Part shown: piece after piece, positions 5,052-27,749 of the stretch
Position numbering within the stretch: the stretch's first letter is position 1
Layout: every line of letters begins with the position of its first letter
IMG/VR virus record: IMGVR_UViG_3300024232_000014
Coordinates: 1-56,133 of that record
Strand: one strand, 5' to 3'
Length of the DNA: 56,133 nt
Origin: a virus
Taxonomy: Duplodnaviria; Caudoviricetes
Notes under the pieces: generated by a model
What the model saw: only the letters and a program-made list of their open reading frames with translations
Told to the model about the DNA's origin: nothing
The model's database searches: none
Made by a program: the position numbers and the translations under genes

Positions 5052-5405
5052 CTAGCTAGCTGGCCTTCTTAGCTTCTCCAGGTCTTTCCTGCGCAGCTCT
5101 TCCAGCTCTTCCTTCATCTTCGCAAGGTCGATGACCTTTACGCCAGCGTCCACGTTCTCCCTGATAGTCGGGCCCTGCATGCCCGGCGTCAGGCCCTCCG
5201 CGCCGCTCCCCTCGACCATCCGGAACGGGATGTCCTCGTCCTCGGTCATGCCCTCCAGGTGGACCTGCTGGAGCCACCACGGCATGGCGATCCACTCGTC
5301 ATATGAAATTTTCAGGTACTTCTGTACTGCGTAGATGATGGTCCGGAGGCTTAGCGCTTCTGGCCGTTCGCCTGCGGCGCTCCACCTCCGGACACGACTT
5401 CCGGG
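5052..5405 (-). CDS. tail assembly chaperone, frameshifted C-terminal (GT-like) portion
   Basis: Frame of the 5052..5285 ORF stays open upstream through the chaperone 3' end in the -1 frame (LRTIIYAVQKYLKISYDEWIAMPWW); candidate slip site C CCG GAA at 5405-5399. Confidence 0.7.
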   Translation of the reverse strand, partial: PGSRVRRWSAAGERPEALSLRTIIYAVQKYLKISYDEWIAMPWWLQQVHLEGMTEDEDIPFRMVEGSGAEGLTPGMQGPTIRENVDAGVKVIDLAKMKEELEELRRKDLEKLRRPAS

Positions 5406-5770
5406 TCCATCACCTGCTCTTGCAGCCAGGCGTAGAAGATGTTCCTGATGCGCGGCGGCAGGGCGAGGAGCTGCTCCTCACTCGGCTTGCCCGAGCACAG
5501 GGCCGCGTACAGGACGGCCATCTTCTTGCCCATCGACAGCATGATCTCCGGGTCGAGCGAGTCGATGGCGTCCAGGAGCTGCGCCTGCGTGGCGTTCTCC
5601 GGCAGCGTCGGCACGTCCTTGCGGAGGTCGCTGGCCAGGGTCTTGACCGAGGCCAGGAACGTCGAGATCTGCGCGTCGGTCGGTTCCTTGATCGTCCCCT
5701 CGCACTGCACGAAGGGCATGAGCGTGAAGTCGAGCGGGTCAACGACGTTGCCCGCGTTGAATCCAGACAA
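5351..5770 (-). CDS. tail assembly chaperone (G-like)
   Basis: 139 aa between major tail and tape measure genes; overlapping -1 frame ORF. Confidence 0.8.
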   Translation of the reverse strand: MSGFNAGNVVDPLDFTLMPFVQCEGTIKEPTDAQISTFLASVKTLASDLRKDVPTLPENATQAQLLDAIDSLDPEIMLSMGKKMAVLYAALCSGKPSEEQLLALPPRIRNIFYAWLQEQVMDPEVVSGGGAPQANGQKR

Positions 5771-5791
5771 GGGCGGTGCGCTCCCTTTGGG

Positions 5792-6409
5792 CTAGCTGGT
5801 GGCGACGGCCGTGAGGTCCGTCCAGGTGATCGAGCTGAACTGGCAGATGGCCGACAGCGTGAGGGGGTAGAGCCTCTGCTGCGCGGCGCGACGGTACGCG
5901 GTCTGAACCTGCCCGGCGCTGACCACGACGGGAACGTACAGCACCCGCGCGAAGCCGAGCTGGTTCTTGCCGACCACGGCCATCGTGAGGGTGGCGAAGT
6001 TGGTGGAGAGGGTCAGCACCGACTTGCCGGGCTGGCCTGCGCCAGCCGCCGTGGTGGCGATCGAGCCGCCGTTGCCCCAGGTCAGGTTGATGTTGTTGAG
6101 GGTGTCCTCAGACAGGTTGGTGGTCACCTGAAGCTCGGCGGTCGACACCGAGACGCCGACGGGAGTCGGCTGCTCCTCGATGTTGATGTTCTGGGTCGTC
6201 GGGTTGAAGGTCAAAGTCAGACCGGCTTCGGTCGCTCCGACGTAGCTCCAGCCCAGGCCGAGCCAGGAGGTGCCGACGCCGAGGTTGGCGTCTGACGGGA
6301 CCGTCGCGCCAACGCCCGGCGAGGGGTTGGGCGCGGTGAAGAGGATGCCCGTGCCGTACAGCACGTTGAGCGTGTTGTAGGCCGGTGGGGTGTATGGCAG
6401 CGACGGCAT
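5792..6409 (-). CDS. major tail protein
   Basis: NVLYGTGILF..P, W.YVGATE.GLTLTF.P....I..EE, NLSEDTL.N motifs; position before chaperone. Confidence 0.85.
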   Translation of the reverse strand: MPSLPYTPPAYNTLNVLYGTGILFTAPNPSPGVGATVPSDANLGVGTSWLGLGWSYVGATEAGLTLTFNPTTQNINIEEQPTPVGVSVSTAELQVTTNLSEDTLNNINLTWGNGGSIATTAAGAGQPGKSVLTLSTNFATLTMAVVGKNQLGFARVLYVPVVVSAGQVQTAYRRAAQQRLYPLTLSAICQFSSITWTDLTAVATS

Positions 6410-6412
6410 GGC

Positions 6413-6766
6413 TTAGCCCTGTCCTTCCTCGATGAGCGTCACGCCAGCATCGTGCGCTGCCTGCGTGAGACCGGGAACCAGCAGCGCGTTCACCTGCGTG
6501 AACTCGCTTCCGATGTAGTGGCCGCCGTAGCTGAACGTCTCGTGCGGCGGTCCGACCTTCAGCCGGACCATCCCAGGGGCGAGCGGTGCCGCCGCCAGGA
6601 TGGCCTGCGCCTTGGCGCGCAGCTCGGCTGCCTGCTCGGCGGGAGACTTCTCCACAGGCTTTTCCGCAGCCTGTGGAGACTCCTCGGCCGCCGTGTCTGC
6701 CTGGTCGGGAGCTGGCGGAGCAGCGGGTACTGCCTGCTCGTCGGGTGTTTCCGGCATGGTGGTCAT
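6413..6766 (-). CDS. hypothetical virion-region protein
   Basis: ATG at 6766 (MTTMPETPDEQ) with GAGG RBS; fills gap between neighbours. Confidence 0.6.
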   Translation of the reverse strand: MTTMPETPDEQAVPAAPPAPDQADTAAEESPQAAEKPVEKSPAEQAAELRAKAQAILAAAPLAPGMVRLKVGPPHETFSYGGHYIGSEFTQVNALLVPGLTQAAHDAGVTLIEEGQG

Positions 6767-6770
6767 CCTC

Positions 6771-7256
6771 TCACGGAACCGCAGGAATGAGCTGGCACAG
6801 GCGGACCGTGAGCGTGGTGGTGTTCGTGAAGTCGATGCAGGTGTACCCGACTCCGCCAGCCCCGATGACTCCGCCGGGAGCGGAGCCGTACTGCGTGGAG
6901 TCGGTCTGCGTGAAGTCCTGCACCGAGAACGGCCCGATGATGAGGGGCACCGTGACGCTCGCGCCGATGGTGATGGTGGTGGCTGCCTGGTTGAAGGCGG
7001 GCAGCCCGCCGGGACCGCCGCCCTTGCGGCCGACCAGAACGTTCGCGGCGGTAGGCGTCGCGCCGTTGGTGACCAGCAGGAACTGGGTGCCGTTGTTGAC
7101 GTACTGGACGCCGAGCGGGCTGCCGACGCTGGCCCAGGAGACGAACGCGTTGCCGGTGCCCGTGGCATCGACACCTGGCCCGGACCCCTGCATGACGCTC
7201 AGGCCGCCGAGAGCCTGGGCGTTGATGGTGTACGCCGCGATGGAGAGTCTGGCCAT
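6771..7256 (-). CDS. hypothetical structural protein
   Basis: 161 aa Gly/Thr-rich, beta-rich; tightly packed in tail operon. Confidence 0.65.
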   Translation of the reverse strand: MARLSIAAYTINAQALGGLSVMQGSGPGVDATGTGNAFVSWASVGSPLGVQYVNNGTQFLLVTNGATPTAANVLVGRKGGGPGGLPAFNQAATTITIGASVTVPLIIGPFSVQDFTQTDSTQYGSAPGGVIGAGGVGYTCIDFTNTTTLTVRLCQLIPAVP

Positions 7257-11241: not shown

Positions 11242-12153
11242 TCAGACTCCGGAGAGAAGGCAGAGCGACAGCGGCTGGTCAAGGCCGATTGCCGATGCGC
11301 GCTGCGTGTCGGAACGCCAGGTCTTGCGCGGCTCGTCGCGGTACAGGGGACCCGCGAGGAACGGCAGCTCGTCTGCGTAGAAGCCCGAGCGGTGGCGCTG
11401 CATGACGATGGCGTTACCCGCAGGGACCTGGCGCGAGACGAGCACGTCCAGGTTGAAGATCTTCTGCGGGAGCACGCCGGTGTACTGGAGGTTCTCCGAC
11501 GCGATGTCGCCGATGTACGGGGCGGCGAACGTGCTGCTCTGGAGCAGGGTGTTCTTCGTCCCGTGGTTGATGATCAAGGTATCGGCTTCAAAGCCGAGCC
11601 ACTGAGTGACGCCAGAAGGCGAAACGATGTTCGCGTTCTCTACCAGGTAGCACGCCTGTGCGAGGTCCGAGCGGATCGTCGCGGCGGCGGTCGACCAGGG
11701 GTTGGAGACCGCCAGCGTCTGGATGTTGGCGTTGGCGACGACGGCCGAGTAGAACGCGGTGTTCCAGGAGTACACCATGGTGTTCTTCACCTGGAGTAGC
11801 TGCCTGGTCACCGGGTCGATCGACTGGCGGCGGCGCATCTCGTCGGAGACCATGATCGCCATGGCCCGCTCGTGCGAGAACACGACGCGGGGCGTGCCGA
11901 TGGAGGTCGGCATGACCGGGACCTCGCCGAACTCGGGCCGCACCTCGGGGAAGTCGTCGGCGTACAGCGGCGTCGACTCCGAGTAGCGGACCGCGCCGGA
12001 GGGAGCAGCGCCGCCCATGCGGAGAACGGAGTCCATGATGAACTCGTTCTCGGTGATGTCCAGAATGAGCGCTGGGATGACCAAGGGGTCCTTCAGCAGC
12101 TCGTTGACGGTTACTCTCGGAGCATCCGAGTAACCCCGTGCGCCCGTGGGCAT
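11242..12153 (-). CDS. major capsid protein
   Basis: 303 aa; VRPEFGEVP, MVSDEMRRR..IDPV.RQL, DTLIIN, AIGLDQP motifs of HK97-fold actinophage capsids; follows protease and decoration genes. Confidence 0.88.
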   Translation of the reverse strand: MPTGARGYSDAPRVTVNELLKDPLVIPALILDITENEFIMDSVLRMGGAAPSGAVRYSESTPLYADDFPEVRPEFGEVPVMPTSIGTPRVVFSHERAMAIMVSDEMRRRQSIDPVTRQLLQVKNTMVYSWNTAFYSAVVANANIQTLAVSNPWSTAAATIRSDLAQACYLVENANIVSPSGVTQWLGFEADTLIINHGTKNTLLQSSTFAAPYIGDIASENLQYTGVLPQKIFNLDVLVSRQVPAGNAIVMQRHRSGFYADELPFLAGPLYRDEPRKTWRSDTQRASAIGLDQPLSLCLLSGV

Positions 12154-12723: not shown

Positions 12724-13899
12724 TCAGAGGCCGGTCTGGTTCCTGTACCGGGCTACCAGCTCGGTGCGCGCCTGGTCGCCTCGCGCGGTGATGTCCGGCT
12801 CGTCGAAAGTCGAGCCCTGCTCGGAGCTGAGATCGAGCATGCTGGTGAGGCGGCCCATCTCGGCCAGCACGCGCCGCATGACGAGCCCGGCGTCCACGCC
12901 CTCCCCGTTGGCCAGCTCGACGACGTGGCCGCTGCCCTCCAGGAGAGGACGAGCCATGTCGACGATGTAGGGCGGCAGGCCGCCGTTGCGCGTGAGCTTC
13001 TGCTTCTCCAGCTCGTAGGAGTCAGCGTCCATCTTGCGCCGCATGACGCCGAGCTGGCGGTTGGTCTCCGCGAGCTGGATGTTAGCCAGCTCCACCGCGT
13101 CCCCGCCGAAGTTCGACAGGCTCGGGCCCGCGCCCGCTCCCGCGAGCTGCTCGGCCTCGAACTCGTCCTGGAGAGCGTCCAGGTCCTCAGCGTCAAGCTC
13201 GTCGACCAGGGCCGCCAGCTCCTCGTCGGTCAGCTCGTCCTCGTCGTACTCGCCGTCGGTGTCCGTGTCCACGACGCCGAGCAGCGCGTCGAGCTGCTCG
13301 TCGGACAGCGACAGCAGACGGTCGAGCCTCGCCTGCTGTGCTTGGGTCAGGCCAGCCATGCCGGTGTCCTCTCCTGCGATTTCCACGTCCGACAGGTCGT
13401 ACACCTGACCGGCGTCGTTTGACATTTCGACGTACTTCCACGGCCCGAGGTCCGGGATGCGCGGGTCGAGCGTGCCGAGGACGTGCTGCACGGCGGCCGG
13501 GAAGAACTTCCCGTCGGCCCGCTCGTACTCCTCGACGATCCTGGCAGACACGCCCAGCTTCGGGTTCTCGGTGAGCACCTGAGTGCCCCTGGCCGTCGGC
13601 TTCATCTTGATGTACAGCCCGTCATCGCCGAGCCGCATCGAGTGGATCTCGCCCCGGAACCGCTCGGGGTCGTTGGTGTGCGTGTTCTGCGCGTCCGCGA
13701 GCTGGAACGGCACCTGGTTGTAGGCCTGCGAGTTGAACGAGGTAACCAGGCTGCTGAGGTAGCTCGGGGTGAAGCTGAGCTTGCGGCCCTTGTAGTTGAT
13801 CTCCCCGATAGGGAGGATGCGCTTCTCCCAGAAGCCGTTGCCCACCGGCCTGGCGGCCGAGAGGTCAATCGGCGTGAGGATGGTCAGCCGCGCGCCCAC
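12724..13899 (-). CDS. capsid maturation protease fused to scaffold (Mu gpI-like)
   Basis: N-terminal ILP.G.I.Y.GR.L.F, H..DPE...G.I, LY......G, VSA.I, HV.GTLDP.I..L..W; acidic coiled-coil C-terminal half. Confidence 0.8.
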   Translation of the reverse strand: MGARLTILTPIDLSAARPVGNGFWEKRILPIGEINYKGRKLSFTPSYLSSLVTSFNSQAYNQVPFQLADAQNTHTNDPERFRGEIHSMRLGDDGLYIKMKPTARGTQVLTENPKLGVSARIVEEYERADGKFFPAAVQHVLGTLDPRIPDLGPWKYVEMSNDAGQVYDLSDVEIAGEDTGMAGLTQAQQARLDRLLSLSDEQLDALLGVVDTDTDGEYDEDELTDEELAALVDELDAEDLDALQDEFEAEQLAGAGAGPSLSNFGGDAVELANIQLAETNRQLGVMRRKMDADSYELEKQKLTRNGGLPPYIVDMARPLLEGSGHVVELANGEGVDAGLVMRRVLAEMGRLTSMLDLSSEQGSTFDEPDITARGDQARTELVARYRNQTGL

Positions 13900-14843
13900 T
13901 AGCTGGCCTTTCGTCCGAAGTTCTGAGCCCGCATGGCCATCTTCCGCGCGACGTCCATCTTCATGCCGCGCTTCATGAGCTTCTTGTAGATGGCCACGCC
14001 CCTGGGCGACAGGCCTCCGGCTCCGTCGTTGTCCGTGTCGCCGGTGGACGAGTCGTCATCATCGCCGTCGTTGTCCGGGTCGGAGGCGAACGCCCGCACG
14101 TTCCCGATCCCGAGCTGTGCCAGCAGCTCGGGCTGGCGCGGCGGTGCCTGGAGGGGCATCGTCGGCCTGGCGGGGTCGAGCGCGGTGCGGTTCCAGGTGC
14201 CGATCAGCTCCTGGAGCGCGGCGCGCTGGTGCGTGTGCGGGGACAGCTCCTTGCCGTCGATCAGCGAGCGCCAGGCGTTGTCCTCGCCTACGCCGATCTC
14301 GCCGATCAGCTCGCCGCCCATGCGGTGGCGGATGACCGCCGTGCCCGAGCCGCTGCGGCTGACGATGATGTCGGCGGCGTTGCGAACCGGGACGCGCGGC
14401 CTGCCGTTCGCCATCAGCAGTGCGCGCGTCCCGGTGTTGGCCAGGCCGACACTCGCTGTCCTGACGCCAATGGACTGCTCCGTGAAACCGGCCCGGCTCG
14501 CCCAGTCACCGCGAGCCTGGGTCTGAAGCTCCGGTGGCTGGCGGGGCGAGGATGTGCCGGACGCTCCGCCGCTGATCGCAAAGTCGGCGTCGTCCGATTC
14601 GTACCCGCAATTGGGGCACCTCGCCGTGCTTCCCGCGAGATCTACTGTTGCCCACGGGGTATTCGAGTGACCGTGGGACCGTCCGTGACTGCTCAACTTG
14701 GCAAATCCCTTCCGGCCGTACTTCTTGCGCCCGATGTAGGCCGCCAGGGCACCGGGGTTGGTCGCTCCGCGAGCTGCGAGCTTGGCAGACAGTGCCTTGA
14801 AATTGGCACCGCTGCCGGGCGGAGCGCCTGCCGTCGTAGGCAT
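13899..14843 (-). CDS. multi-module head-associated protein
   Basis: GGAGG RBS; NPGALAAYIGRKKYG module, CPNCG knuckle, acidic stretch; carries HSN..VDLA and LAN..LLMA motifs. Confidence 0.7.
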   Translation of the reverse strand: MPTTAGAPPGSGANFKALSAKLAARGATNPGALAAYIGRKKYGRKGFAKLSSHGRSHGHSNTPWATVDLAGSTARCPNCGYESDDADFAISGGASGTSSPRQPPELQTQARGDWASRAGFTEQSIGVRTASVGLANTGTRALLMANGRPRVPVRNAADIIVSRSGSGTAVIRHRMGGELIGEIGVGEDNAWRSLIDGKELSPHTHQRAALQELIGTWNRTALDPARPTMPLQAPPRQPELLAQLGIGNVRAFASDPDNDGDDDDSSTGDTDNDGAGGLSPRGVAIYKKLMKRGMKMDVARKMAMRAQNFGRKAS

Positions 14844-14876
14844 AACGCGGTTCCCTCCTGGTCACCTATCGCGACC

Positions 14877-14907
14877 ATAGTAGCTCTAACTGCCTGCCTG
14901 CCTGCAA
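14877..14907 (-). promoter_or_regulatory. possible housekeeping-sigma promoter for head genes
   Basis: TTGCAG-N19-TACTAT in the 80-bp gap; spacer is long; shares TTGCAGGCAGGC with the 45835..45862 site. Confidence 0.35.
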
Positions 14908-14923
14908 TAACATGCCGACAGTT

Positions 14924-17734
14924 TTAAGCCGCGCTCATCGCCAGTCTCGCGAATTGCGCCGCCTCTATTTCATTCAGTCCCAGCACTTCCATCGCAGCTT
15001 GTGCAACGCCTCTCGTGACTTCTCTCAGTGCACGTGAGTAATCCTCGTCCGCTGCGTGGTCCTTGATGCTCTGCGCCTTGGTGGCAATGGCCCTGCGGGT
15101 CTTGGCGATCATGTCGATGAACGCGGGACCGGCTGCTCCGACGGTCGCGGCGATCATCGGCACGACGACCTCCCACAGGTCCTTGCCGGAGATCGCCTCA
15201 CCGCCCGTGTGCACGCCGTAGCGGAAGGCCAGGAATCCGGCGAGGCCGCCCAGGGACGTGCCAAGGGCGATGCGGAAGTTGCTGTTGCGCTCGGAGATAA
15301 GCTCGGAGATCTTCTCGCTGGCCGCCAGCCTCTTCTCGGCTTCCTTGGCGCGCTCGGTCTCGGCCTGCTCCGCCTTCTGGGCGCGCAGCGACTCCATCTT
15401 CGCCAGCCGCTCATTGCGGCGCGTCGCCTGCTGGCTGAGGCTGCTGGCCGTCTGGACAGCCAGGACCGCCTCGGCGAGAGACTTGTTCAGCTCGTCCTGC
15501 CGGGACAGCAGGTCACTGAGCTGCCTGTTCTGCGCGTCGGAGAGGTTCATGCTCGCCGCGAACGCCTTGACGCCCTGGGAGAAGTCCCTGGTGGCGTCCT
15601 CCAGGCCGGTGCTGGAGGCCTTGAAGCTGCCCGGCGAGACGCCAGAGGTGCGGGCGATGTCCTCGGCAGACCTGCCCGGCGTCTTGGTCTTGCCTTCCAT
15701 CGAGGCCCGCATGGCGGCCCTGATGTGCGGGGTCGCGGCCTTGGGCCCGCCCCTGTCCGGCGTTGCCTGGCTGCGCACGGAGTTGAGCGGGTGGTACTCG
15801 CGCCTGGACTGGCGCACCTCGTCCAGGGTCTTGAACGTGCTCTTCCTGGTGCGCGCCGGCAACGGCCCCTCCATCGACGGCATGCTGCCACCAGCCCGCT
15901 CGAACTCGCCGTGCTTGCCGCGCTTGAGGTGAAAGTGACCGAGGAATGCCAGGTCAGACCCGAACCTGGACAGCTCGATCTGCTCGCCTAGCGATCCGGG
16001 CTGCTCCCCAGGGCTTCCTGGAGCTGCGCGGCCATCTTGTCGGCTGCCGCCAGCCGCTCCTCCTCCGGCAAGTCCCAGTACCCCTCCGGCACCAAGACGT
16101 GAGCCTTCTGAGGAGCGCCAGGCGAGGTTGTGGTCGATGATCCGTCCGCCACCGCTGCCTCCGGTGTTAATGGTGCTGAATGTGTTCAAGTCAAAGATAC
16201 CTACCTGGTCGCGCTCCTTGCCCAGGCGCTCCGCTTCTGCACGGTCCTGCACGTTCTGAGACGGGTCCAGCCAGAGATGGCCGTCTTCGACCCAGCCGCC
16301 GATGTACATGTCCTTGCCCTCGAACGAGCTGCGCTCGGACATGAGCATGTCGTCGATGGCCCGCCGTAGCTTGGCGCGGTCGTCGAGGATGGATGCCGGG
16401 TAACGGTGCGTGTGCCCGTCGAGCGCGACCATGTACCCGTGCACCGGCTGGCCGCCGGTCAGCGGGGAGACGGAGAAGCCCTCGCGGTCCTTCTCCATGA
16501 CCTTCACCGCGTCACTGGCCCCGCCGAACTTCGTCCACCGGCCGCGCGAGTCACGCGCCTGCATCGGGTTGAACGCCAGCTCGATCTGCTCGCCGAGGCT
16601 GCCGGAGAACGAGATCGGGTTCTCGTGCACGACGGCCGTGGTGCCCTTGTGCGTGGCGATGGTATGCCCGATGGCGTGCTGCTCCCAGGTGTCCCAGGCG
16701 CGCGAGGCGCGGCTGAACCTGCCCTTGGCCTCCTTCGCGCCTGCTACCTCCGAGAGCTTGCGGCCCTGCTTCACCAGCTCCTCGGCCTGCGCGACCAGGG
16801 CGGCGTCCAGCTCGTTGTTCTTGCGCTGCTGGCGCAGCCAGGTAATCGCCTGGACCTGGTGCGGGGCGATGTCGATACCGTCGCGGCGCGAGATGTCGAG
16901 CGCGGCCTTGCGGTACATGTCGGCCATGTACTGGTAGGTGTACGTCGAGCCGACCGGCGCGGCGGGCAGCTCCGATCGGTAGGCCTTCACCTGGTCTTCG
17001 TTCCAGTCCGGGTGCTCGGCGCGCACGTCGGCGTAGCTCGGGGTGTCCGTCTGGTCCTTGGTGAGCCGCCGCCCGGCCGCAACCGACAGCGCGTGCCGGT
17101 CCATGACGACCAGGCCCTCGGTGTCGTCCGGCGTGTCCCCGCCGTTGCGGATGAGCTGGTAGAACGCGTGCGTCTTGGGTGCCCCGGTCGGGAACAGGTC
17201 GTCGTAGGGCCCGTGGTCGCGCCCCAGGATGGCGTTGGCCTTGGTCTTCACCGCGCCGGTGATGCCCGTGCCGTGCTCGGGCGAGTGCCCCAGCTCCAGC
17301 GCGTGCGCCGCGTTCAGCGCGTTGGTCTGCCAGTCGGTCTGCGGGCTGTAGCAGGCCAGCAGCGCCGCGCCCTTGTCCGCGTCGCCGCCGCCGATCATCC
17401 GGGCCACGGTGTGCGCGTCGGAGTACCAGCGCATACCCTGGTCGCGCTCGTCGGTGTTGGCATCGTCGAACGCCGCGACGATGTTCTTGCTGCTCAGCCC
17501 GTACTTCTTGATGAACGCGTTGTCGCTGGCCTTGGCCTTGTTCGCGGCCACGCGGTCAACGGGAGGCTCCTTGTAGCGCTCGCCCGAGCCCCACTTCATC
17601 CCGGACAGCGTGCCCATGACGGTGCTGCCGTCCCGCGACCACTCGCCGTGGGCGTTGCGGTGCTCCAGCGGGTTGTACCGCCAGCCCAGGTCGATGAGCT
17701 GGCTGCCGAGCGAGTCGTCTGTCATCAGGCTCAT
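14924..17734 (-). CDS. large multi-domain head-associated (polyvalent-type) protein
   Basis: 936 aa; HhH-glycosylase-like region (WY..A, YSPQ..W..N, PKT.AF, V.MDRHA, P.QVQAITW), second domain (GFSV.P..G..P..GYMV, YIGGW, LD.S, A..LG....Q..IFDL), coiled coil plus two hydrophobic helices; three xQ(L)I[ED]L + RxxxGxW/F motifs. Confidence 0.75.
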   Translation of the reverse strand: MSLMTDDSLGSQLIDLGWRYNPLEHRNAHGEWSRDGSTVMGTLSGMKWGSGERYKEPPVDRVAANKAKASDNAFIKKYGLSSKNIVAAFDDANTDERDQGMRWYSDAHTVARMIGGGDADKGAALLACYSPQTDWQTNALNAAHALELGHSPEHGTGITGAVKTKANAILGRDHGPYDDLFPTGAPKTHAFYQLIRNGGDTPDDTEGLVVMDRHALSVAAGRRLTKDQTDTPSYADVRAEHPDWNEDQVKAYRSELPAAPVGSTYTYQYMADMYRKAALDISRRDGIDIAPHQVQAITWLRQQRKNNELDAALVAQAEELVKQGRKLSEVAGAKEAKGRFSRASRAWDTWEQHAIGHTIATHKGTTAVVHENPISFSGSLGEQIELAFNPMQARDSRGRWTKFGGASDAVKVMEKDREGFSVSPLTGGQPVHGYMVALDGHTHRYPASILDDRAKLRRAIDDMLMSERSSFEGKDMYIGGWVEDGHLWLDPSQNVQDRAEAERLGKERDQVGIFDLNTFSTINTGGSGGGRIIDHNLAWRSSEGSRLGAGGVLGLAGGGAAGGSRQDGRAAPGSPGEQPGSLGEQIELSRFGSDLAFLGHFHLKRGKHGEFERAGGSMPSMEGPLPARTRKSTFKTLDEVRQSRREYHPLNSVRSQATPDRGGPKAATPHIRAAMRASMEGKTKTPGRSAEDIARTSGVSPGSFKASSTGLEDATRDFSQGVKAFAASMNLSDAQNRQLSDLLSRQDELNKSLAEAVLAVQTASSLSQQATRRNERLAKMESLRAQKAEQAETERAKEAEKRLAASEKISELISERNSNFRIALGTSLGGLAGFLAFRYGVHTGGEAISGKDLWEVVVPMIAATVGAAGPAFIDMIAKTRRAIATKAQSIKDHAADEDYSRALREVTRGVAQAAMEVLGLNEIEAAQFARLAMSAA

Positions 17735-17943
17735 TGCGTCCTCGTCTCATCGGGAGCCATCCGGCCGAGCACCCGCACCACGTCGCCGACCTCGGCGAGC
17801 GCGGGCTTGTTGCCGGTGCCGAGCAGCCCGATGCCGATCTGGCGCACCTGCTCCATGGCGTCGGCAGACCGGGCAGCCGGATCGTGCCCAGCCCATTCAA
17901 GCAGGCCGTAGGCGCGCTGTCCTTCCGGAGTACGGCCGGTCAC
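17731..17943 (-). CDS. small hypothetical protein
   Basis: GTG at 17943 overlapping upstream TGA; its stop overlaps the next ATG (ATGA). Confidence 0.55.
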   Translation of the reverse strand: MTGRTPEGQRAYGLLEWAGHDPAARSADAMEQVRQIGIGLLGTGNKPALAEVGDVVRVLGRMAPDETRTQ

Positions 17944-19466
17944 GGCTTGGCCCCCTCGCCGTTCTTCTTGATCACCTGGCGGATCTTCTTCCTGGCCAGG
18001 TCGATGGTCACCTGCGGGTGGCCCTCTTTCCACTGGTGCTTCACGATGTCCTCGGCTTCCCCGATCGCTTCCACGACGGTGCTGTCCGTGATCGTCCCAG
18101 GACGGTAGCCCATGGTGCTGAAGATGAGCGCGGCCATGTGGCGCACCTTGCCCGCCGTGCCCTGGCTGTTGATCTGGTCGGCGATCCAGCCGATCTTCTC
18201 CGGGTCTTCCTTGCCGCCGTCGAGCACTGCGATGTACGCGCTGAAGTTGTAGGCGTCGGCTGTCCACTGGTTGTAGTGCTGCCAGGACGTTCCGTTGCGG
18301 ATGCGCTGCGGGCTGGCCATGTCCCTGGCCCACTCGCCGACGTTCTTGTTCGGCACCTCGTACATGTCATCGAGCTTGCGCTTGATGTCCCTGGCGCGCT
18401 CGGTGTAGTGCGGGTCGCCGAGGTGCCTCACGCGGGTCACCGCGTCGCCGATAGTCTCGATGTCCTCGTCCGAGCGCAGGTCGCGGAGAATGGCGCGGAT
18501 TTTCCCGGCCTCCTGCGTCTCAGGCGGGCGGCCGTCTTTCTCCAGCTCACCGGCCAGGTCGCCGAGTGAGGCCATCACCTGGTCCTGCTTGTCCTGGAAT
18601 ACCTGGTCAGCATTGTCGACCGGGAACCGCGTCTTGCGGTCCGCTACTCCGGTAGCCCTGAAGAACTCCTCGGCGTGCTGCGCGGTGCCGAGCTGGGTGA
18701 ATCCCTCTTCGATCGCCCTGACGCTGCTGTCCTTCTCGTTGTAGGCCATGCTGTCGTCAGCGCGGAACTCGTTCGGCTTCTCGTGCTCGCCTTTCGGCTC
18801 GACGGCATGGATCATCTCGTGCAGCGGCACGATCAGCGGGTCAGGGTCGTCTACCGTCTCGCCGGGCTTGTCGAGAATTGCCGTCAGCTCTTTGGCGGTG
18901 TTCTCCTCGATGAACATCTGCCCGTCCCAGCCCATCTGGGCAAGGGCACCTGGATGCTCGTTCTCGCTGAACTCTTCCGGAGGCTTCCCGTTCCAGTAGA
19001 GAGCGGTATTGTCGCCGAAAAGCGCCGGGACGATACGCACGTTCTTCTGCATCCATTCGTGGATGCGCTCTATTTCCGGGCTGTCTCCCGGTATTTCCCC
19101 GCCTGGATTCAATGCCGCGATAGCGTCCTTGTACGCCGCTACCCTGACTCTGGCATCATCGACAACTGACTTATTGGTCGATTCGTGCGTGATCCGGTAG
19201 GCGTACTCGAATGCGCTGGAAAGCGAGTCGGCAGCCTTCTGGTCGTCTCCGTCCCTCAGCGCTTTTATCGCATTGCCGAGGTGCCTGTCCTCGGTGTACC
19301 GGGCACCGGGCAGCTTGCTCAGCCGGTTGACGATCCCCTGGTGCGCCGGTGCATCCAGTGCTGCGCCTGCGCCGTGCACCCAGCGCCCGTCCGGTGCCCG
19401 TACCTCGTGCCGCCATGCGTTCCGCCAGCCGCCCGACAGCTCGATCTGCTGTCCGGGCGTCGTCAC
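17940..19466 (-). CDS. zincin-like metallopeptidase domain protein
   Basis: HEMIH (HExxH) with downstream IEEG third-ligand motif; N-terminal QQIELS...RAPDGRW. Confidence 0.7.
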   Translation of the reverse strand: MTTPGQQIELSGGWRNAWRHEVRAPDGRWVHGAGAALDAPAHQGIVNRLSKLPGARYTEDRHLGNAIKALRDGDDQKAADSLSSAFEYAYRITHESTNKSVVDDARVRVAAYKDAIAALNPGGEIPGDSPEIERIHEWMQKNVRIVPALFGDNTALYWNGKPPEEFSENEHPGALAQMGWDGQMFIEENTAKELTAILDKPGETVDDPDPLIVPLHEMIHAVEPKGEHEKPNEFRADDSMAYNEKDSSVRAIEEGFTQLGTAQHAEEFFRATGVADRKTRFPVDNADQVFQDKQDQVMASLGDLAGELEKDGRPPETQEAGKIRAILRDLRSDEDIETIGDAVTRVRHLGDPHYTERARDIKRKLDDMYEVPNKNVGEWARDMASPQRIRNGTSWQHYNQWTADAYNFSAYIAVLDGGKEDPEKIGWIADQINSQGTAGKVRHMAALIFSTMGYRPGTITDSTVVEAIGEAEDIVKHQWKEGHPQVTIDLARKKIRQVIKKNGEGAKP

Positions 19467-20092
19467 TTCAGTGCCTTGGCCTGGGCAATCGCCGTGGCCG
19501 CTGCCGTCAGGTACTGCTGGATCTGCTTGTTAAGCGCCTGGATCTGCGTCCTGAGCTGGTTCTGCGAGGCGGTGGTGTTGAGGCTGGAGGTAGAGCCCGG
19601 TGCCTGCGTGAGGCTGGACGAGGTGCCTGCCGGGTTAGTTGCCCCGGTCGCTGCGGTCGCCGGTGCAGGCGCGCTCGATGCCGTCGTGGAGCCCGCCTGG
19701 CTGCCGGTGGTCGAGCCCGACTGGCCCATGTTCACCTGGCCGCTCGCGCTGGCCAGCTCCTTCTGGAGCAGGTCGCGCTTGGCGATCAGCTCGTGCGCCT
19801 TCTGCCGGTCGCTGGCTGCCGAGGTGAGCAGTACGTGCTTCTGGTGCTGCACGTGCGCCGCGTGCGCCGAGGCAGGCACCGACTTGGGCAGCGGGACGCC
19901 CTTGACGCCCTTGCCCTTCGGCGCGGGCTTGCTGCCCTTGCCCGCCGTTGCCTGGCCCTGGCCGCCCTTGGTGAACTCGCCCGCGACGTTGCGCGCTTCC
20001 TTCTTGGCGTTAGCCGAGCGCGCGTTGCCGCTGCCCGCCGAGGTCGAGCGCGGTCCGCTTGCGCTGCTGGTGGCCGGAGCCGCGAGCAGCAC
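19463..20092 (-). CDS. low-complexity coiled-coil protein; probable -1 frameshift extension of 20092..22866
   Basis: No well-spaced RBS before GTG; lies in the -1 frame just after C CCA AAA; contains RNVAGEF motif. Confidence 0.6.
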   Translation of the reverse strand: MLLAAPATSSASGPRSTSAGSGNARSANAKKEARNVAGEFTKGGQGQATAGKGSKPAPKGKGVKGVPLPKSVPASAHAAHVQHQKHVLLTSAASDRQKAHELIAKRDLLQKELASASGQVNMGQSGSTTGSQAGSTTASSAPAPATAATGATNPAGTSSSLTQAPGSTSSLNTTASQNQLRTQIQALNKQIQQYLTAAATAIAQAKALK

Positions 20093-22866
20093 TACCCTTT
20101 TGGGAGCAGTACCGCCAGCTCGACAGCTCGGGATGCGTCGTCCCAGTTAGACAGGCCTGCATTGCGCCGCCTGGTAGCCGCCGTGCGCCGCGCTGCCTGG
20201 GCGCTCGTCTCGCCGAACGCGGAGCGCTGCTCCCTGGTCAGGAGCGGCCCGGCCAGGTTCTCCATGTTCCGCCCGCCTGGGTTCTTCATCCTTGGCGGTG
20301 CGGTGTACGGAGCTACCTTGGGCGGCCCGAACGGGTCGCGGGGAGCCTTCGGCACCGAGCGCCGGGCGGGAGCGGTGCGCGCCGCGTACGCCTTGGCGGC
20401 TGCCTCGCGCGCCGCGTTGGCCTTCGGCGAGGTGTCGATGCGCCCTGTGCGGTTGCCGGACGGCAGGCTGCCCAGGGTGCCCGCGTGGCGCTGGATCTGC
20501 TCGCCGAGGCCGCTGTCCGAGCCGTGCGCGAACTCCGACCTGGCCGACTTCCCGGCCGCCGCGACGTGCGCCCTGGCCCGGTCGTAGTCACCGGCCCCGA
20601 TCGCCCTGGCCGCGCTGCGCAGCGAGTTGGCCGAGGAGGACCCGCCGCGCCGCTGGAAGCTGCCGTAGCCCTCGGAGTCGTCCGTGGCGTTGTACAGCGG
20701 GGCACCGACTCCTGCCCGGTCCGGGTCGTTGTTGCGCAGCATGGCCGCCCGCTCCGCCTTGTCGGCGAGGTCGTGGAGCCGCTGCACGTGCTCGGCCGGG
20801 GAGAGCTTGCCGCCCTGGCCCCGGTTGAAGTCGCCCTTGGGCGCGTGCTCGACCTGCGAGTGCCCCTTGACGGTCTGCTTGTAGACCTTGCCGGTGCGCT
20901 CGTGCATCACCCGCAGGGTGACCTTGCTGTTCTTGCCGCTGCCGTGGTGCTCCGCCGACAGCACGCGGTGCGGGCCGAAGCCCGCCCGGCCGCCCTCGAA
21001 GCTCGCCATCAGCCGGTCGCCCGCCTTGACCGCCGAGGCGTGCGTGCTGCGGTGACCGCCCTTGTGCGGCGTCGGGTCGAAGCCTGGGTCGCCTGCGCGC
21101 TTGAAGCCGTGGGACCAGCCTCCGGCACCGACCAGGTTGATCTCGCGGGCGGCGGTGCCGCCGGACAGGTTCCTCAACTTCTTCCCCTTAGCAGTGCGCG
21201 CGGTGTCGTCCGCTGCCTGGTCGATGACAGCCCCGGCGTGCGAGATGTGCTTGCCGAGCGTGTAGGAGTTGCCGATGGCGTTGCGGTAGGTCGCATCGCC
21301 ACGGCCTCCGGCGTAGAACTCGTGACTGCGCAGCGTGTTCTGCGCCGCGCGCAGATGCTGGCCGGCAGTGTCGAAGTCGCCGCGCCGCACAGCGTCGGCT
21401 GCCGTGCGGACGTGATCGCCGAGGCCCTTGCCGGGGTGGTCGCTGTCGAGCTTGCCTGCCAGCTCGCCGAGCGACTTAGCCCATTCGCCGTGGGCACCGC
21501 GCAGCTCGTCCTGCCAGCCCAGCTCAACGGCGCGCTGTCCGGTATTCGAGTACCCGCCCTGGCGGGACGGCGGCAGCGGGCCCGGCTGGTCGTTGCCCAG
21601 CGGGTTCCAGGCCCTGGCGATGGGGTTGCGCTGCCCTGGCTCTTTCACCTTCCCGCGCGAGCGGGCCACCTGCGCGCCGATGGTGTCGATCCGGCGCGCG
21701 TGGATGTCGTCGGCGCTGCCATGGTGCTCGCTGCCGTACGCGCCCCGGCCGATAGCCCCGGACGCGTTGATCAGGTGCCCCCTGGCCTGGGCGAGGTCGC
21801 CCTTGGCCAGCGCCTCGTGCGCCATGCCCAGGTACTGCTGGGTGCTTCTGTGGCTGCCTGCGTGGTCGGATGCGGCGATGCTGGAGCTGACTGCCTTGAC
21901 GGCCGCCGCGAGCTGCCCGCTGGTCCACTTCCCGCCCTTGCCACGGCGCTCGCTCATCCAGGCCGGTGCAAGCTCGATAGCGTCTGCACGCCCGTTTGCG
22001 TGTGCGTGTGCACGTGCCTGGGCGGCGATCTCCATGGCCTCTGCTCCTGTCGCGGCAGCTCTCACCTCGGGGTGCTTGCTCTTGGCACCCCACTTGCGGA
22101 TGGAAGCCCGCGCGATGCCGTAGGCCCTGCCCGGCGGCATGCCGCGCTTCTCGATGAGCGCCTTGACCACCTGCTGGAGGTACGGAGAGTGCTCGTTGCC
22201 CTTGACGCGGTACAGGCCGGGACCGCCTGGCCGCCCTCGCGGTGCGGGGGTGACGGCGAGGCGCGCGGTCTCCGCCGACAGCTCGACCGCCGTGGTGAGG
22301 TCGCCGCTGTTGCTCGCCGCGATCTGCTTGGTGACGTGCCAGCTCGTGACGCTCTTGGGCTTGGCCACGTTCTCGTCGACTCCGCCGGTCGGCAGCTCCG
22401 CAGGCGTCTGCATCGGGTTAGCGCCCTTGCGCGCCGAGGGGATGTCGCTGTTGGGCATCCCTGTCTCGTCGCCCGGCATCTGCCCCATGGCCGTCAGGTT
22501 CTCGTTGTGCGCCTCGTGGTCCTGGATGTCCTTGACCAGCAGCAGGTGCCGGTGCACCGCGTCCATGTGCGCCTTGGCCTGGTGGTACTCGGCGTCCGTG
22601 ACCATTCCGTGACGGTACAGGCTCTGCGGCTGGAAATTGCCGATAGCGGCGTTCAGGTGCCGCACCGCGCCCTCGCTGTTCTGGCGCTCCAGCGCGTTGG
22701 CCGCGTCCTTCAGGTGCTGGTGGGAGCCCATGCGAGGGTGGTGGTCCTCCAGCTCCTTCGCCAGCGCCCGGATCTGCACGACGGTCTCCCGGCGCATCTG
22801 GCCGGTCGGCTTCCAGGCGTTCTGCCTGGCCTGGGGCGGGCGGTACACGCCCTTCCTACCGCTCAC
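20092..22866 (-). CDS. large basic multi-module head-associated protein
   Basis: 924 aa Ala/Gly/His/Arg-rich; repeated helical modules (A..A...GD...A..HL..A) separated by xSN..[VI]EL[ASG] motifs. Confidence 0.75.
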   Translation of the reverse strand: MSGRKGVYRPPQARQNAWKPTGQMRRETVVQIRALAKELEDHHPRMGSHQHLKDAANALERQNSEGAVRHLNAAIGNFQPQSLYRHGMVTDAEYHQAKAHMDAVHRHLLLVKDIQDHEAHNENLTAMGQMPGDETGMPNSDIPSARKGANPMQTPAELPTGGVDENVAKPKSVTSWHVTKQIAASNSGDLTTAVELSAETARLAVTPAPRGRPGGPGLYRVKGNEHSPYLQQVVKALIEKRGMPPGRAYGIARASIRKWGAKSKHPEVRAAATGAEAMEIAAQARAHAHANGRADAIELAPAWMSERRGKGGKWTSGQLAAAVKAVSSSIAASDHAGSHRSTQQYLGMAHEALAKGDLAQARGHLINASGAIGRGAYGSEHHGSADDIHARRIDTIGAQVARSRGKVKEPGQRNPIARAWNPLGNDQPGPLPPSRQGGYSNTGQRAVELGWQDELRGAHGEWAKSLGELAGKLDSDHPGKGLGDHVRTAADAVRRGDFDTAGQHLRAAQNTLRSHEFYAGGRGDATYRNAIGNSYTLGKHISHAGAVIDQAADDTARTAKGKKLRNLSGGTAAREINLVGAGGWSHGFKRAGDPGFDPTPHKGGHRSTHASAVKAGDRLMASFEGGRAGFGPHRVLSAEHHGSGKNSKVTLRVMHERTGKVYKQTVKGHSQVEHAPKGDFNRGQGGKLSPAEHVQRLHDLADKAERAAMLRNNDPDRAGVGAPLYNATDDSEGYGSFQRRGGSSSANSLRSAARAIGAGDYDRARAHVAAAGKSARSEFAHGSDSGLGEQIQRHAGTLGSLPSGNRTGRIDTSPKANAAREAAAKAYAARTAPARRSVPKAPRDPFGPPKVAPYTAPPRMKNPGGRNMENLAGPLLTREQRSAFGETSAQAARRTAATRRRNAGLSNWDDASRAVELAVLLPKG

Positions 22867-24328: not shown

Positions 24329-25978
24329 TCATGCCATCTGTCCAGGTGGGGGTGTCATCGGCGGCTTCGCCGGTGGAGTAGGCGGTCCTGACTGCGGCGC
24401 GAGGCCGGGTGCGCGCTGGCCAGGTGGCGGAGGCTGGCGCAGCGCGCCGGGGTTCTGCGCCCCGGCTCGCTGGGCGATGCTGAACGCCGCGTTCGTCATC
24501 CCCTGCACAGCGCCGAGACCGGCTGCTGCCTCGGGAGGCATGCCGGGCGGCGGGTTGCCCGCGAGCTGCTCGGCTCTCTGGTTGGCGGTGGAGACCAGGG
24601 CATCGTGCACGGCATCCTGGTCGAGCTGGAGGATCGAGGCCATGCGCTCGGTGATCAGGTCGAAGACCGGCAGCGGGATGTGCAGCACCTGGGCGGCCGA
24701 GAGCTGGCCGAACAGGGTGAGCAGCGCCTGCGCCTGCTCGTCCTCCAGCGGGCCGAACTTCCAGGTGGGGAAGGACGCCTTGGTGCCGAAGTTGAGCAGG
24801 ATCAGCGGGCGGATGATGTCGTAGCTGATCGACTCGCTGACTTCCTCGGCGATGGCCTGGCGGGACTTCAGGAAGAAGCTGCTCTGGTCCTGGGACAGGG
24901 CATAGCTGCCCTTGCCGCCGGTCGCGCCGCCGGTCAGCGCGAGGAAGCCCGCCAGGATCGAGTGCGTCTGCCAGCTCTCCAGGAAGTTCATCGCGGCCGA
25001 GAAGAACGCCCCGCCGTCGCCGCTGCTCTCCAGCACCTCGAAGGTCTTCTGGCCGTCGGCCGGCCGGATGAGGCCGACCACGCCGGAGGACTTGAGCGCG
25101 GCTATGTCCGAGGCCTTCGTGTTCGCCTCGGGCTGGTCGTTGCCGTAGACCACGGTCCTGGGCAGCGCCTGGTTCTCCAGGAAGTGATACCAGAGGTACA
25201 GGAGCTTCATCTTGGTCTGGTAGCACCAGTAGCAGACTTCCATCTCCGACGCGCCGGTCAGCGGCTCGCGGTACTTCCCGTGCGTGTAGATGTACGAGCG
25301 CATTTTCGGGATGTCGACGTAGCCCGGTACCTTCTGCTTGCGGTTGAGCATCAGGTTGCCGCCGAAGAGCCAGACCTGCTGACGGAATCCGTTGGCCTGG
25401 CCTGTGCGGTCGTTGTACCTGGCCTGGCAGGTGGACGGCGGCCGGTAGGAGATCCGCTCGTAGATGACCTTCTCGTCGTCGTCCCTGATGGTGAAGGTCT
25501 TCTCGAAGAAGGAACGCCGGTAGAGCTGCGCGGTAGTGATCTGGCCAACCAGGTCGGTGACCGGCGTCTTCATGCCGCCCTCGGTGTCGGGGGTCATCAG
25601 CACGCCGTGGATGAACTCCGCCTCGCCGCTGTCGCCCTTGCCGCCCTGGATCATCCTGCCCGCCTGCCTGATCGGCAGGGTGAGCGCGCTGGACAGCGCA
25701 GCGGAGATGCCGTCGCGGGCGAGCATGACCTTCATGTCGCGAGCGCCCCACGAGCCGTAGTCGAAGACGTCGCCCTCGCCGTAGTACGCGAACAGCCGCT
25801 GCCCCCAGTCGAACTGGGTGCCGATCTCAGCCCCCATCAGGGCGCTCTTGCCGCCGTAGGCGTGACTCCCCTTCGGCGCGAGGTCCGGGAAATCGTAGAC
25901 CTGGGCGGTCTTCCCGTCCTGCTTGACCGTAGAAGTGCCGTTACTGCGTGGTGGCATCTCGTGAACCTCCAGCGTCAA
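24329..25978 (-). CDS. portal protein (Mu gp29/DUF935-like)
   Basis: Follows TerL; M...DG..A.L....LPI, GSYALS..Q..FF, IIRPLI.LNFG....P...F motifs. Confidence 0.88.
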   Translation of the reverse strand: MTLEVHEMPPRSNGTSTVKQDGKTAQVYDFPDLAPKGSHAYGGKSALMGAEIGTQFDWGQRLFAYYGEGDVFDYGSWGARDMKVMLARDGISAALSSALTLPIRQAGRMIQGGKGDSGEAEFIHGVLMTPDTEGGMKTPVTDLVGQITTAQLYRRSFFEKTFTIRDDDEKVIYERISYRPPSTCQARYNDRTGQANGFRQQVWLFGGNLMLNRKQKVPGYVDIPKMRSYIYTHGKYREPLTGASEMEVCYWCYQTKMKLLYLWYHFLENQALPRTVVYGNDQPEANTKASDIAALKSSGVVGLIRPADGQKTFEVLESSGDGGAFFSAAMNFLESWQTHSILAGFLALTGGATGGKGSYALSQDQSSFFLKSRQAIAEEVSESISYDIIRPLILLNFGTKASFPTWKFGPLEDEQAQALLTLFGQLSAAQVLHIPLPVFDLITERMASILQLDQDAVHDALVSTANQRAEQLAGNPPPGMPPEAAAGLGAVQGMTNAAFSIAQRAGAQNPGALRQPPPPGQRAPGLAPQSGPPTPPAKPPMTPPPGQMA

Positions 25979-25988
25979 TCATGCCTGG

Positions 25989-27749
25989 CTAGCGCCAGGA
26001 ATGCACTGCCGCCCGGCTAGGACGAACGTCTTCTCTTTCATCAGCAACAGACTGCGGCGCAAACCCGTCCGTGCTCCAGTCGCCTCCAGCCTGGTTGAGC
26101 GGCCCGCCGGAGGCTTCCTCCAGCCGCCGCGCCATGCGCGAGTCGTGGCTGTCCTCGGGCATCTCGAAGCCGATCCTGCCTCCGGCCGCGTCCAGGATGT
26201 CCCCGCTGTCCAGAGCGTAGTCGTACGACCTGGCTGCCTCTGGCTCGCGGCCGGACAGGTACAGGAACTTGGTCATGCCCCAGACCAGGGAGTCGAGCCG
26301 GTCCGGCGAGCGCTCCTTGGCCGCGCCGGTGAACGTGCACATCTGGTCTTCCAGCTCGACCATCGACTCGACCGCCAGCTCGCCGAACGCGTCCTTGGCC
26401 AGCATCTTGCAGTGCTTGACCTTGTTGCGCTGGTAGAGCGCGGCTACCGGCTCGGCGCGCGTCCGCTTGTTCTGGCTGGACCAGACCTCTTCGACGTACG
26501 GCACCCGGCCGGGCGGCATGACCGGCTCGAACTTGCGGCACTCACACTCCTCGTCGCGGCAGCGCCCTGCCTTGGCGTGCTCGTGCGCGCAGTTCGCGCA
26601 CTCAGCTTGCAACTCCTTGATCACCTGGTGGAACATGGCGACCATCCACTTGCCGCCGTGGTTGCGCTCGACGACGATCCGCGCCTCCCACTCGATCGCC
26701 TTCAGCACGACGCGGCGCGCGAACAGCGGCGGGGACTCCTGGCCGCCCCAGTTCTCGGCGACATACACGGTGTCATCGCCGCCGAAGCCGAGGCCCATGA
26801 TGGTGTAGGCCTGCTCGTCGCTGTTCTCCGAGCCGTCGGACGGGTCGACGCCGATGACCGCGTTCCGCAGGTAGGCCTCGCCCTCGGGCCCGCTGATCAC
26901 CGGCACCTGGATGCGCTCGATCAGCTCGCGCGTCCACAGCGAGTTGGGCACGTCGTCGAGCAGCACGCCTTCCAGCTCCTGCTGCTCCAGTCTCGTGCCC
27001 TTGTTCGCGCCGATGACAGCCCTGTAGAAGGCCTCAGACAGGTGCTTGCGGTTGTCGACGGTCCGCAGCCGCCGCACGATCACGCCGCCGTGCTGCGGCT
27101 CGTCGCGGACCAGGGAGCGGACCAGCTTGGCGGCCGGGCGGGCAGCCTTGGGCGTCCCGGTTGCGATGATCACCGACGCGCCCATACGGACCGCGTACCG
27201 CAGCGACTCGTTCCAGGTAGTGTCCCACTTGTCCCAGAGCCCTACCTCGTCGCACCAGGCAGCCTTCAGGTTGCGGCCCTGGATGCGCAGGCCGCCTTCT
27301 GCGGCCGAGTCGGCGTAGATGATGATGCCGTTGTGCAGGACCACCTGGCCGTACGTCCGCCAGGCACTGCGCACCGTCTTGGAGCGGTGGTCCTTGATCT
27401 CGGCCATCGAGGTGCCGAGCGCCCGCAGGATGCCGCTCTCGCCCTCCACGCACTTGGTCCAGGCGTCGGCGTAGGTGGGCGCGATGATGCCGTACTCGCC
27501 CTCGCCGTCGGTGTCAGCCAGCACGAGGTCCGCTAGCCCCTGCGCGCCTGCCCTGGTCTTCCCGCTGCCACGGCCGCCGGACAGGTAGAGCACCCGCCAG
27601 GTGTTGTCTCTCTCGGGCAGGAGCTGCTCGGGCCTGGCAGTCTGACGCCAGCGCAGCCGGGGGTCCTCCGGAGCGCTGGCGTACCTCGTGCCTACCAGGC
27701 CGAGCGCCGCCACGTCGGAGTGGTGCGCCCCGATGGCGGTAATGCTCAT
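25989..27749 (-). CDS. terL: terminase large subunit
   Basis: Walker A GGRGSGKT, Walker B AWCDE, TGTP, QELEG, nuclease VIGVDP, K..RAEPVAALY, SPDRLDSLVW. Confidence 0.95.
   Translation of the reverse strand: MSITAIGAHHSDVAALGLVGTRYASAPEDPRLRWRQTARPEQLLPERDNTWRVLYLSGGRGSGKTRAGAQGLADLVLADTDGEGEYGIIAPTYADAWTKCVEGESGILRALGTSMAEIKDHRSKTVRSAWRTYGQVVLHNGIIIYADSAAEGGLRIQGRNLKAAWCDEVGLWDKWDTTWNESLRYAVRMGASVIIATGTPKAARPAAKLVRSLVRDEPQHGGVIVRRLRTVDNRKHLSEAFYRAVIGANKGTRLEQQELEGVLLDDVPNSLWTRELIERIQVPVISGPEGEAYLRNAVIGVDPSDGSENSDEQAYTIMGLGFGGDDTVYVAENWGGQESPPLFARRVVLKAIEWEARIVVERNHGGKWMVAMFHQVIKELQAECANCAHEHAKAGRCRDEECECRKFEPVMPPGRVPYVEEVWSSQNKRTRAEPVAALYQRNKVKHCKMLAKDAFGELAVESMVELEDQMCTFTGAAKERSPDRLDSLVWGMTKFLYLSGREPEAARSYDYALDSGDILDAAGGRIGFEMPEDSHDSRMARRLEEASGGPLNQAGGDWSTDGFAPQSVADEREDVRPSRAAVHSWR

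Follow-up and report, generated by a model that had tools for sequence, protein, structure and literature searches.

Two adjoining open reading frames (ORFs) of 924 and 209 amino acids (aa) were analyzed on the minus strand of IMGVR_UViG_3300024232_000014, a linear viral record of IMG/VR with 56,133 bp, ~67% G+C and an estimated completeness of 63%. This whole stretch is called the window below; the coordinates of its features are collected in Table 1. The 924-aa ORF ends in CTC CCA AAA GGG TAG, and the 209-aa ORF, which lies in the -1 frame, begins with a GTG sharing one base with the TAG (TAGTG at 20094-20090). Together with the preceding C, the codons CCA AAA form an in-frame heptamer of the type X XXY YYZ. 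When read in the -1 frame, the junction gives AGG GTA GTG CTG CTC GCG and runs into the 209-aa ORF. A stop in this frame is met 18 codons before the GTG; any shift joining the two ORFs is therefore confined to 20095-20146. A slip at C CCA AAA predicts a product of 923 + 211 = 1,134 residues.

Downstream of the heptamer, the RNA can form a hairpin with an 8-bp outer stem, which includes one G-U pair, plus inner pairs. Folded alone (36 nucleotides, nt), the hairpin reaches -21.7 kcal/mol with z = -4.2, and none of 200 shuffled sequences equaled it. Within the window, an equally good 36-nt fold begins 1-8 nt downstream at 2.1% of positions. The GTG of the 209-aa ORF is preceded by AAAGGG at a distance of only 2-3 nt, i.e., outside the spacing of ~5-10 nt expected of a Shine-Dalgarno-like (SD-like) sequence, whereas the other starts of the operon have GGAG- or AGGA-type sites 5-10 nt upstream. 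Given this spacing and its burial in the hairpin, the GTG appears to be a poor start. The original prediction, made from the letters of the window, had described the in-frame heptamer right before the TAG, the entry of the -1 frame into the 209-aa ORF, the 8-bp stem 5 nt further on, a GTG lacking a properly spaced ribosome binding site, a position directly after the final AVELA motif and a predicted fusion length of about 1134 aa. Each of these readings was reproduced.

The heptamer is unusual for this genome. In the ORFs of the window with high G+C at third codon positions, 19 of 18,943 codon positions carry an in-frame X XXY YYZ heptamer (~0.001 per codon), and about 0.018 are expected within the 18-codon overlap. 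The sequence CCCAAAA has a single copy in 56 kb, counting both strands, with 1.33 expected window-wide, and this copy is located at the junction. Both of its codons are rare: CCA accounts for 41 of 461 proline codons (8.9%) and AAA for 15 of 290 lysine codons (5.2%), and just one of the 20 Pro-Lys pairs in the window is spelled CCA AAA.

The split between the two ORFs is present in the DNA itself. Proteins of 918 or 924 aa with the same stop (...LLPKG), together with 209-aa partners, were found in at least four assemblies (NCBI, JGI, ENA and Logan); the protein variants differ by one to three residues, and the 209-aa frame is intact in all five of them. The original prediction had named an assembly indel as something to be checked in reads. 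This check was performed with contigs, not raw reads, of four other soil runs aligned to the window. Two contigs bridge the junction with 0 gaps, namely X4 (record 14; 19950-20247) and X5 (record 16; 19576-20248), and no insertions or deletions are listed in the contigs of the four runs. In X5, 23 of 673 positions are substituted, none of them within 20055-20148; the site is thus identical in strain-level variants. No fused variant of high identity was present among 83 homologues of the 924-aa protein (508-1,617 aa).

Changes between the window and the X5 variant were sorted by reading frame. In the 209-aa frame, 13 codon changes are synonymous and one is non-synonymous, compared to 0:14 in each other frame, which shows purifying selection on the 209-aa frame and indicates that it is translated. 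The synonymous changes include codons 13, 24 and 25 (CGC to AGG, Arg to Arg), which lie upstream of the recognizable core of the module encoded here, in the following termed the C-module. In the 209-aa ORF, the N-terminal part is disordered and bears an R-x3-G-x-F tag; a His-rich stretch and two predicted long helices (74-118 and 173-207) are also present. A structure model of the module has a mean predicted local distance difference test (pLDDT) score of 62.7; both helices exceed 90, the linkers are disordered and little else is confident. As a guess from this model, the C-module might be a capsid-binding or scaffold-like helical hairpin.

In relatives, the C-module is usually part of a longer protein. 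It stands in frame at the C-terminus in 12 homologues of the 924-aa protein, straight after a W-D-D...[VI]-E-[LM] motif. A profile search matched 123 proteins among 1.84 billion representatives. Rescoring covered 187 foreign proteins, 155 of which carried the module; it lies more than 60 residues into the protein in 137 and ends at most 15 residues from the C-terminus in 133 of the 155. Among 54 related viral loci that contain it (numbered with the prefix L), the C-module starts at least 90 residues into the open frame in 34; the corresponding start in the window is residue 43 of a frame of 227 codons. A search with the 209-aa ORF among proteins of similar length yielded, apart from the cluster of the window itself, a single relative of 167 aa; the closest non-identical C-module is P0093 (167 aa, about 69-75% identical). 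Stand-alone C-modules have a V-E-L-type motif within their own ORF. Among the C-module proteins and loci compared, a frame break between the W-D-D...V-E-L motif and the module core occurs in the window only. Judged from these sequences, the C-module of relatives is nearly always fused in frame to a long protein, of which it forms the C-terminal part.

The 924-aa protein has no significant family in Pfam or PHROGs. Its N-module (~aa 1-200) is followed by module B (~aa 190-300) and by additional modules, and [VI]-[ED]-L motifs mark the boundaries of each. Its 83 homologues share the N-module and module B in shuffled architectures, and some bear zinc-ribbon (DZR), peptidoglycan-binding or ADP-ribosyltransferase domains. 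Domains found in the modules of relatives are ADPrib_exo_Tox (E = 4e-13, L003:2224-4479), Zeta_toxin (E = 1e-28, L043:10138-10956) and Arr-ms plus 2H phosphoesterase domains (L016:11432-12565); hence, the family carries exchangeable enzyme or toxin cargo. In L013, a 354-aa, HNH-type, zinc-ribbon-rich ORF (L013:5263-6324), for which Pfam gave no match, is located between module B (ending ...MHGH, stop) and the C-module ORF (6225-7094). This insert interrupts the family gene in the manner of a homing endonuclease and is separated from module B by a single in-frame stop (5260-5262).

The 54 related loci were also surveyed for heptamers at junctions, which were required to have an upstream ORF of 150 codons or more, a 0-frame stop within 7 codons and a -1 frame that stays open for 100 codons or more. 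Five of 16 distinct CCCAAAA sites lie at such ORF ends, with the 0-frame stop 3-7 codons from the CCA of the heptamer, compared to 28 of 2,199 sites with any other X XXY YYZ heptamer (Fisher p = 2e-6). Adding the window changes the counts to 6 of 17 and 30 of 2,320, respectively. The geometry of the window, i.e., CCA AAA, one codon and the stop, is repeated in L026, L028 and L031. The clearest case is L026, in which the 0-frame ORF encodes the N-module, and the -1 frame encodes module B through the C-module; each part is collinear with the single-ORF homologue P0040 at 75% identity. No ATG, GTG or TTG was found in L026 in the 38 codons after the heptamer, which lie inside the conserved module B. 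In L043, the -1 frame past CCCAAAA adds a Zeta-toxin domain. A search with the 19-nt junction of L026 matched only L026 and the contig of L028.

Spelling of Pro-Lys as CCA-AAA is about five times over-represented in the family: in 296 long ORFs from 44 loci, it was observed in 15 of 340 cases, compared to an expectation of 2.8 (p = 2e-7), and a C precedes 13 of the 15. Seven of these 13 C-CCA-AAA copies follow a V/I/T/E-x-L motif at a distance of 0-3 residues, as in the window, and three lie in R-x-P-K-G-x-W tags. In-frame copies of C CCA AAA were also seen inside long polyprotein ORFs (L002:1907, L003:2883, L031:10903, L017:7791, L023:7805 and L043:7583), where they sit right after V-I-E-L-A or inside R-x-P-K-G-x-W tags. 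For the copies in L002, L003 and L031, a -1 stop follows 2-4 codons later. These three are possible dnaX-like truncating frameshift sites; a slip there would truncate the protein at the point where the 0-frame product of the window ends.

These observations favor a programmed -1 ribosomal frameshift at C CCA AAA, which would give a 924-aa and a 1,134-aa product, since the split is real, the -1 frame is constrained, the homologues are fused, the heptamer is composed of rare codons and CCCAAAA is enriched at the junctions of relatives. We assign this reading a probability of about 0.7; it is the interpretation put forward by the original prediction, which the reality of the split, the constraint on the frame, the fusion in the family, the rare codons and the family-wide enrichment support. 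With tRNA-Pro in its P site and tRNA-Lys in its A site, a ribosome at the heptamer would be slowed by the hairpin, which begins 5 nt downstream, and perhaps also by the stop one codon ahead. A fraction of the ribosomes would slip back one base, re-pair on CCC AAA and continue with AGG GTA GTG into the 209-aa frame. Ribosomes that do not slip would produce the 924-aa protein, ending seven residues after A-V-E-L, and those that slip the 1,134-aa protein with the family's usual C-terminal helical module. The efficiency of slipping would then set the share of copies with the C-module, possibly at a fixed ratio as supposed in the original prediction. Restart at the overlapping GTG may coexist with slipping.

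Several observations weigh against a programmed frameshift. In a 68-nt context, the fold at the junction is unremarkable (z = -0.1; 89 of 200 shuffles), and the CCCAAAA sites of relatives have no obvious comparable hairpins. L026 and L028 share the upstream ORF, which leaves about four independent recurrences, and L016 and L031 have possible downstream starts. The C-module is short or N-terminal, starting within the first 60 residues, in 18 of the 155 proteins, some of them fragments. Conservation of heptamer and overlap in relatives, which the original prediction had listed as a check, was borne out in part: the heptamer is enriched at the junctions of the family, but the exact junction of the window recurs only in strain-level variants that are at least ~96.6% identical. 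Searches of metagenome and viral contigs with the 924-aa protein and the C-module revealed no deeper relative with this junction, and neither did a search of viral contigs with the exact 37 nt. Furthermore, Logan contigs of X2 (records 3 and 4) and X3 (records 9 and 10), at a depth of 2.5-5, end within 20080-20102, which low depth, the hairpin or a minority variant might explain. As contigs only were used for the junction check, a minority variant with an indel may be present in the population. A scan of 185,579 species genomes found one locus of the family, L004, on a 15.9-kb scaffold of a metagenome-assembled genome labeled Bacillota, an odd label given that the family otherwise occurs in high-GC viral contigs.

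The most serious alternative, which we regard as unlikely, is that two ordinary genes are translationally coupled: ribosomes would stop at the TAG and restart at the GTG, and heptamer and hairpin would be coincidental, or the hairpin would gate the restart. The one-base overlap TAGTG is a classic arrangement for coupling, and stop-start overlaps are common in the operon and the phage, e.g., GTGA at 19463-19466 and at 17940. If frameshifting were the only route, a start placed exactly on the stop would be a coincidence of ~5%, as estimated from base composition. Relatives provide further examples. The family gene of L003 is split by an ordinary ATGA overlap with a good SD sequence, the upstream ORF ending in an ADP-ribosyltransferase domain, and divergent relatives have some 12-18 short proteins in which the C-module stands alone. 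In L013, the C-module is a separate ORF after the inserted HNH-type gene, and its GTG stands in the same GGGTAGTG junction. However, L013 was down-weighted as evidence for coupling because, unlike the window, it has a well-spaced AAGGGGG 9 nt upstream of the GTG and because the stand-alone forms, L013 included, keep W-D-D...V-E-L with the module, while the window alone splits the two. In the window, the only SD-like sequence is too close to the GTG, and the GTG itself is enclosed in a hairpin of -20 to -22 kcal/mol. Coupling would also require that the rarity of the heptamer, its position and the hairpin all arose by chance (about 4e-4 jointly), and it leaves the enrichment of CCCAAAA at the frame junctions of the family unexplained.

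It is very improbable that a once-continuous gene recently lost one base, e.g., in an A or G run, in which case the 924-aa protein would be truncated and the C-module ORF silent or reached only through accidental slipping at a low level. Normal fusion in the family, the position of the break within the short homopolymers CCC-AAAA-GGG and the confinement of the arrangement to near-identical strains would all fit such a loss. Against it, the 13:1 ratio of synonymous to non-synonymous changes and the intact frame in all five protein variants argue for expression and selection, and the occurrence of the heptamer in both topologies among relatives, i.e., at ORF ends and inside long ORFs, points to a used signal and not to an accident. 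An indel of assembly or sequencing in a genome with one continuous ORF of ~1,134 aa is hardly credible: short homopolymers are present at the junction and the X2 and X3 contigs end there, but the split recurs in assemblies of different sources and is spanned by two gap-free contigs of other runs, with no indel listed in four runs. Slippage during transcription was dismissed from general considerations, since four A in a row are too few for it.

A wider form of the programmed frameshift was considered, for which the odds fall somewhat below even. C CCA AAA cassettes placed just after the inter-module [VI]-E-L-A motif may dose the cargo modules of head-module polyproteins throughout the family in soil actinophage-like viruses, and may do so in two topologies. 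Ribosomes would slip to continue in the window, L026, L028 and L043, and would slip to stop in L002, L003 and L031. Graded amounts of successive modules would thus be obtained from one mRNA in a manner resembling Gag/Gag-Pol, and the system could be rewired by single-base indels.

The mechanism of -1 frameshifting is already known from head and tail genes of Lactobacillus phage A2, gene 10 of T7 and T3 and the tail chaperones. For the virion genes of A2, -1 frameshifting is described in PMC5009743. As proposed here, in gp5A/gp5B (major head) and in the major tail protein of A2 a -1 slip near the end of a virion gene gives a longer product. The gene of the window differs in that it encodes a 924-aa modular protein after MuF and not the major capsid protein, and what it adds is a helical module carried in frame by relatives instead of an Ig-like domain. 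In addition, the host group of the window is high-GC and probably actinobacterial. The heptamer of A2 is reportedly CCCAAAA as well, at the penultimate codon and followed by a stem-loop.

In T7/T3 gene 10A/10B and in the lambda-type tail chaperone G/GT, a fixed fraction of ribosomes shifts by -1 near the 0-frame stop (PMC5009743). Short and long forms share the N-terminus there as in the window, whereas the gene family and the presumed role differ. The window has a tail-chaperone-like G/T pair of its own (5351-5791 and 5052-5477, minus strand; frames of 146 and 141 codons) before a 964-aa tape-measure-like gene. As a positive control, a canonical X XXY YYZ heptamer was sought in the -1 overlap of this pair (5351-5477), and none was found. 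In Escherichia coli dnaX, tau and gamma arise from A AAA AAG plus an upstream SD-like element. The candidate sites of L002, L003 and L031 resemble dnaX, as a slip would truncate the protein; the ratios would be inverted and the two products the same as in the layout of the window.

MuF-associated polymorphic toxins and phage polyvalent proteins (PMC5576092) share with the 924-aa gene a place in the head module beside MuF and a modular build with interchangeable toxin or enzyme modules, which in the present family are carried by relatives of the 924-aa protein. In contrast to them, the MuF of the window is a separate 217-aa protein, and the 924-aa protein belongs to no Pfam or PHROG family. The 924-aa gene nevertheless has the traits of MuF-linked cargo, i.e., a position in the head module near portal and MuF, a multi-module build and exchangeable enzyme domains in homologues. 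The PRFect paper mentions pairs of MuF-like and VIP2 ADP-ribosyltransferase genes among predicted actinophage frameshifts and suggests that they may use frameshifting (PMC10885494); this hint is a one-sentence computational remark and not a described system. Beyond this remark, the literature accessible to the search contained nothing on frameshifting in the family of the 924-aa gene.

Both ORFs belong to the head module (Table 1). The major head protein matches only actinophages, at less than 60% identity (191 records), namely phages of Gordonia, Mycobacterium, Corynebacterium, Arthrobacter and Streptomyces, and the DNA of the window is present in soil metagenome runs; the host is therefore probably a soil actinobacterium. 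Neither megablast nor tblastn with the two ORFs matched any of 50,697 phage records, and no close cultured relative was found.

Table 1. Features of the junction and of the surrounding head module in the window.
Feature	Position	Strand	Remarks
Slippery heptamer C CCA AAA	20104-20098	minus	in 0 frame; AAA is the penultimate sense codon
0-frame stop TAG	20092-20094	minus	one codon past the heptamer; the GTG of the 209-aa ORF begins at its G
Overlap with both frames open	20095-20146	minus	18 open codons of the -1 frame precede the GTG
GC-rich hairpin, 32 nt	20061-20092	minus	starts 5 nt after the heptamer; buries the GTG
Last W-D-D...A-V-E-L-A inter-module motif of the 924-aa ORF (W908-A918)	20113-20145	minus	contiguous and in frame with the C-module in relatives
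Large terminase (TerL)	25989-27749	minus	head module
Mu-like portal	24329-25978	minus	head module
MuF-like protein, 217 aa	22856-23509	minus	head module
924-aa ORF	20092-22866	minus	0 frame; directly after the MuF-like gene
209-aa ORF (C-module)	19463-20092	minus	-1 frame
508-aa ORF, then 936-aa DUF7178 protein, then further genes		minus	downstream of the 209-aa ORF
Major head protein	11242-12153	minus	end of the listed head-module order

Two further observations were made in the same operon. A small ORF of ~69 aa (17731-17942, minus strand) fills the gap after the 508-aa gene; its GTG overlaps the TGA (GTGA), and with GGAGAGGGGG a few bases upstream of this GTG it is an example of well-signaled coupling. 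Moreover, [VI]-[ED]-L-[SAG] motifs followed by R-x3-G-x-[WF] are repeated in the 924-, 508-, 936- and 391-aa proteins (12724-19466 and 20092-22866, minus strand), and the pattern recurs in relatives. They may represent protease sites combined with targeting tags.

Should slipping take place, annotation as a single joined gene that gives two products would be appropriate for the 924-aa and 209-aa ORFs, and likewise for relatives such as L026 and L028. The excess of the rare-codon heptamer in the family suggests that an anomaly in codon usage alone can reveal recoding signals in high-GC phages. To our knowledge, few phage frameshifts are established apart from those of tail chaperones. The frameshift proposed here, if true, would control the dose of a conserved helical module at the C-terminus of a large modular head protein, relatives of which bear toxin and enzyme domains, and it would become directly testable how the copy number of internal or ejected proteins is determined in phages.

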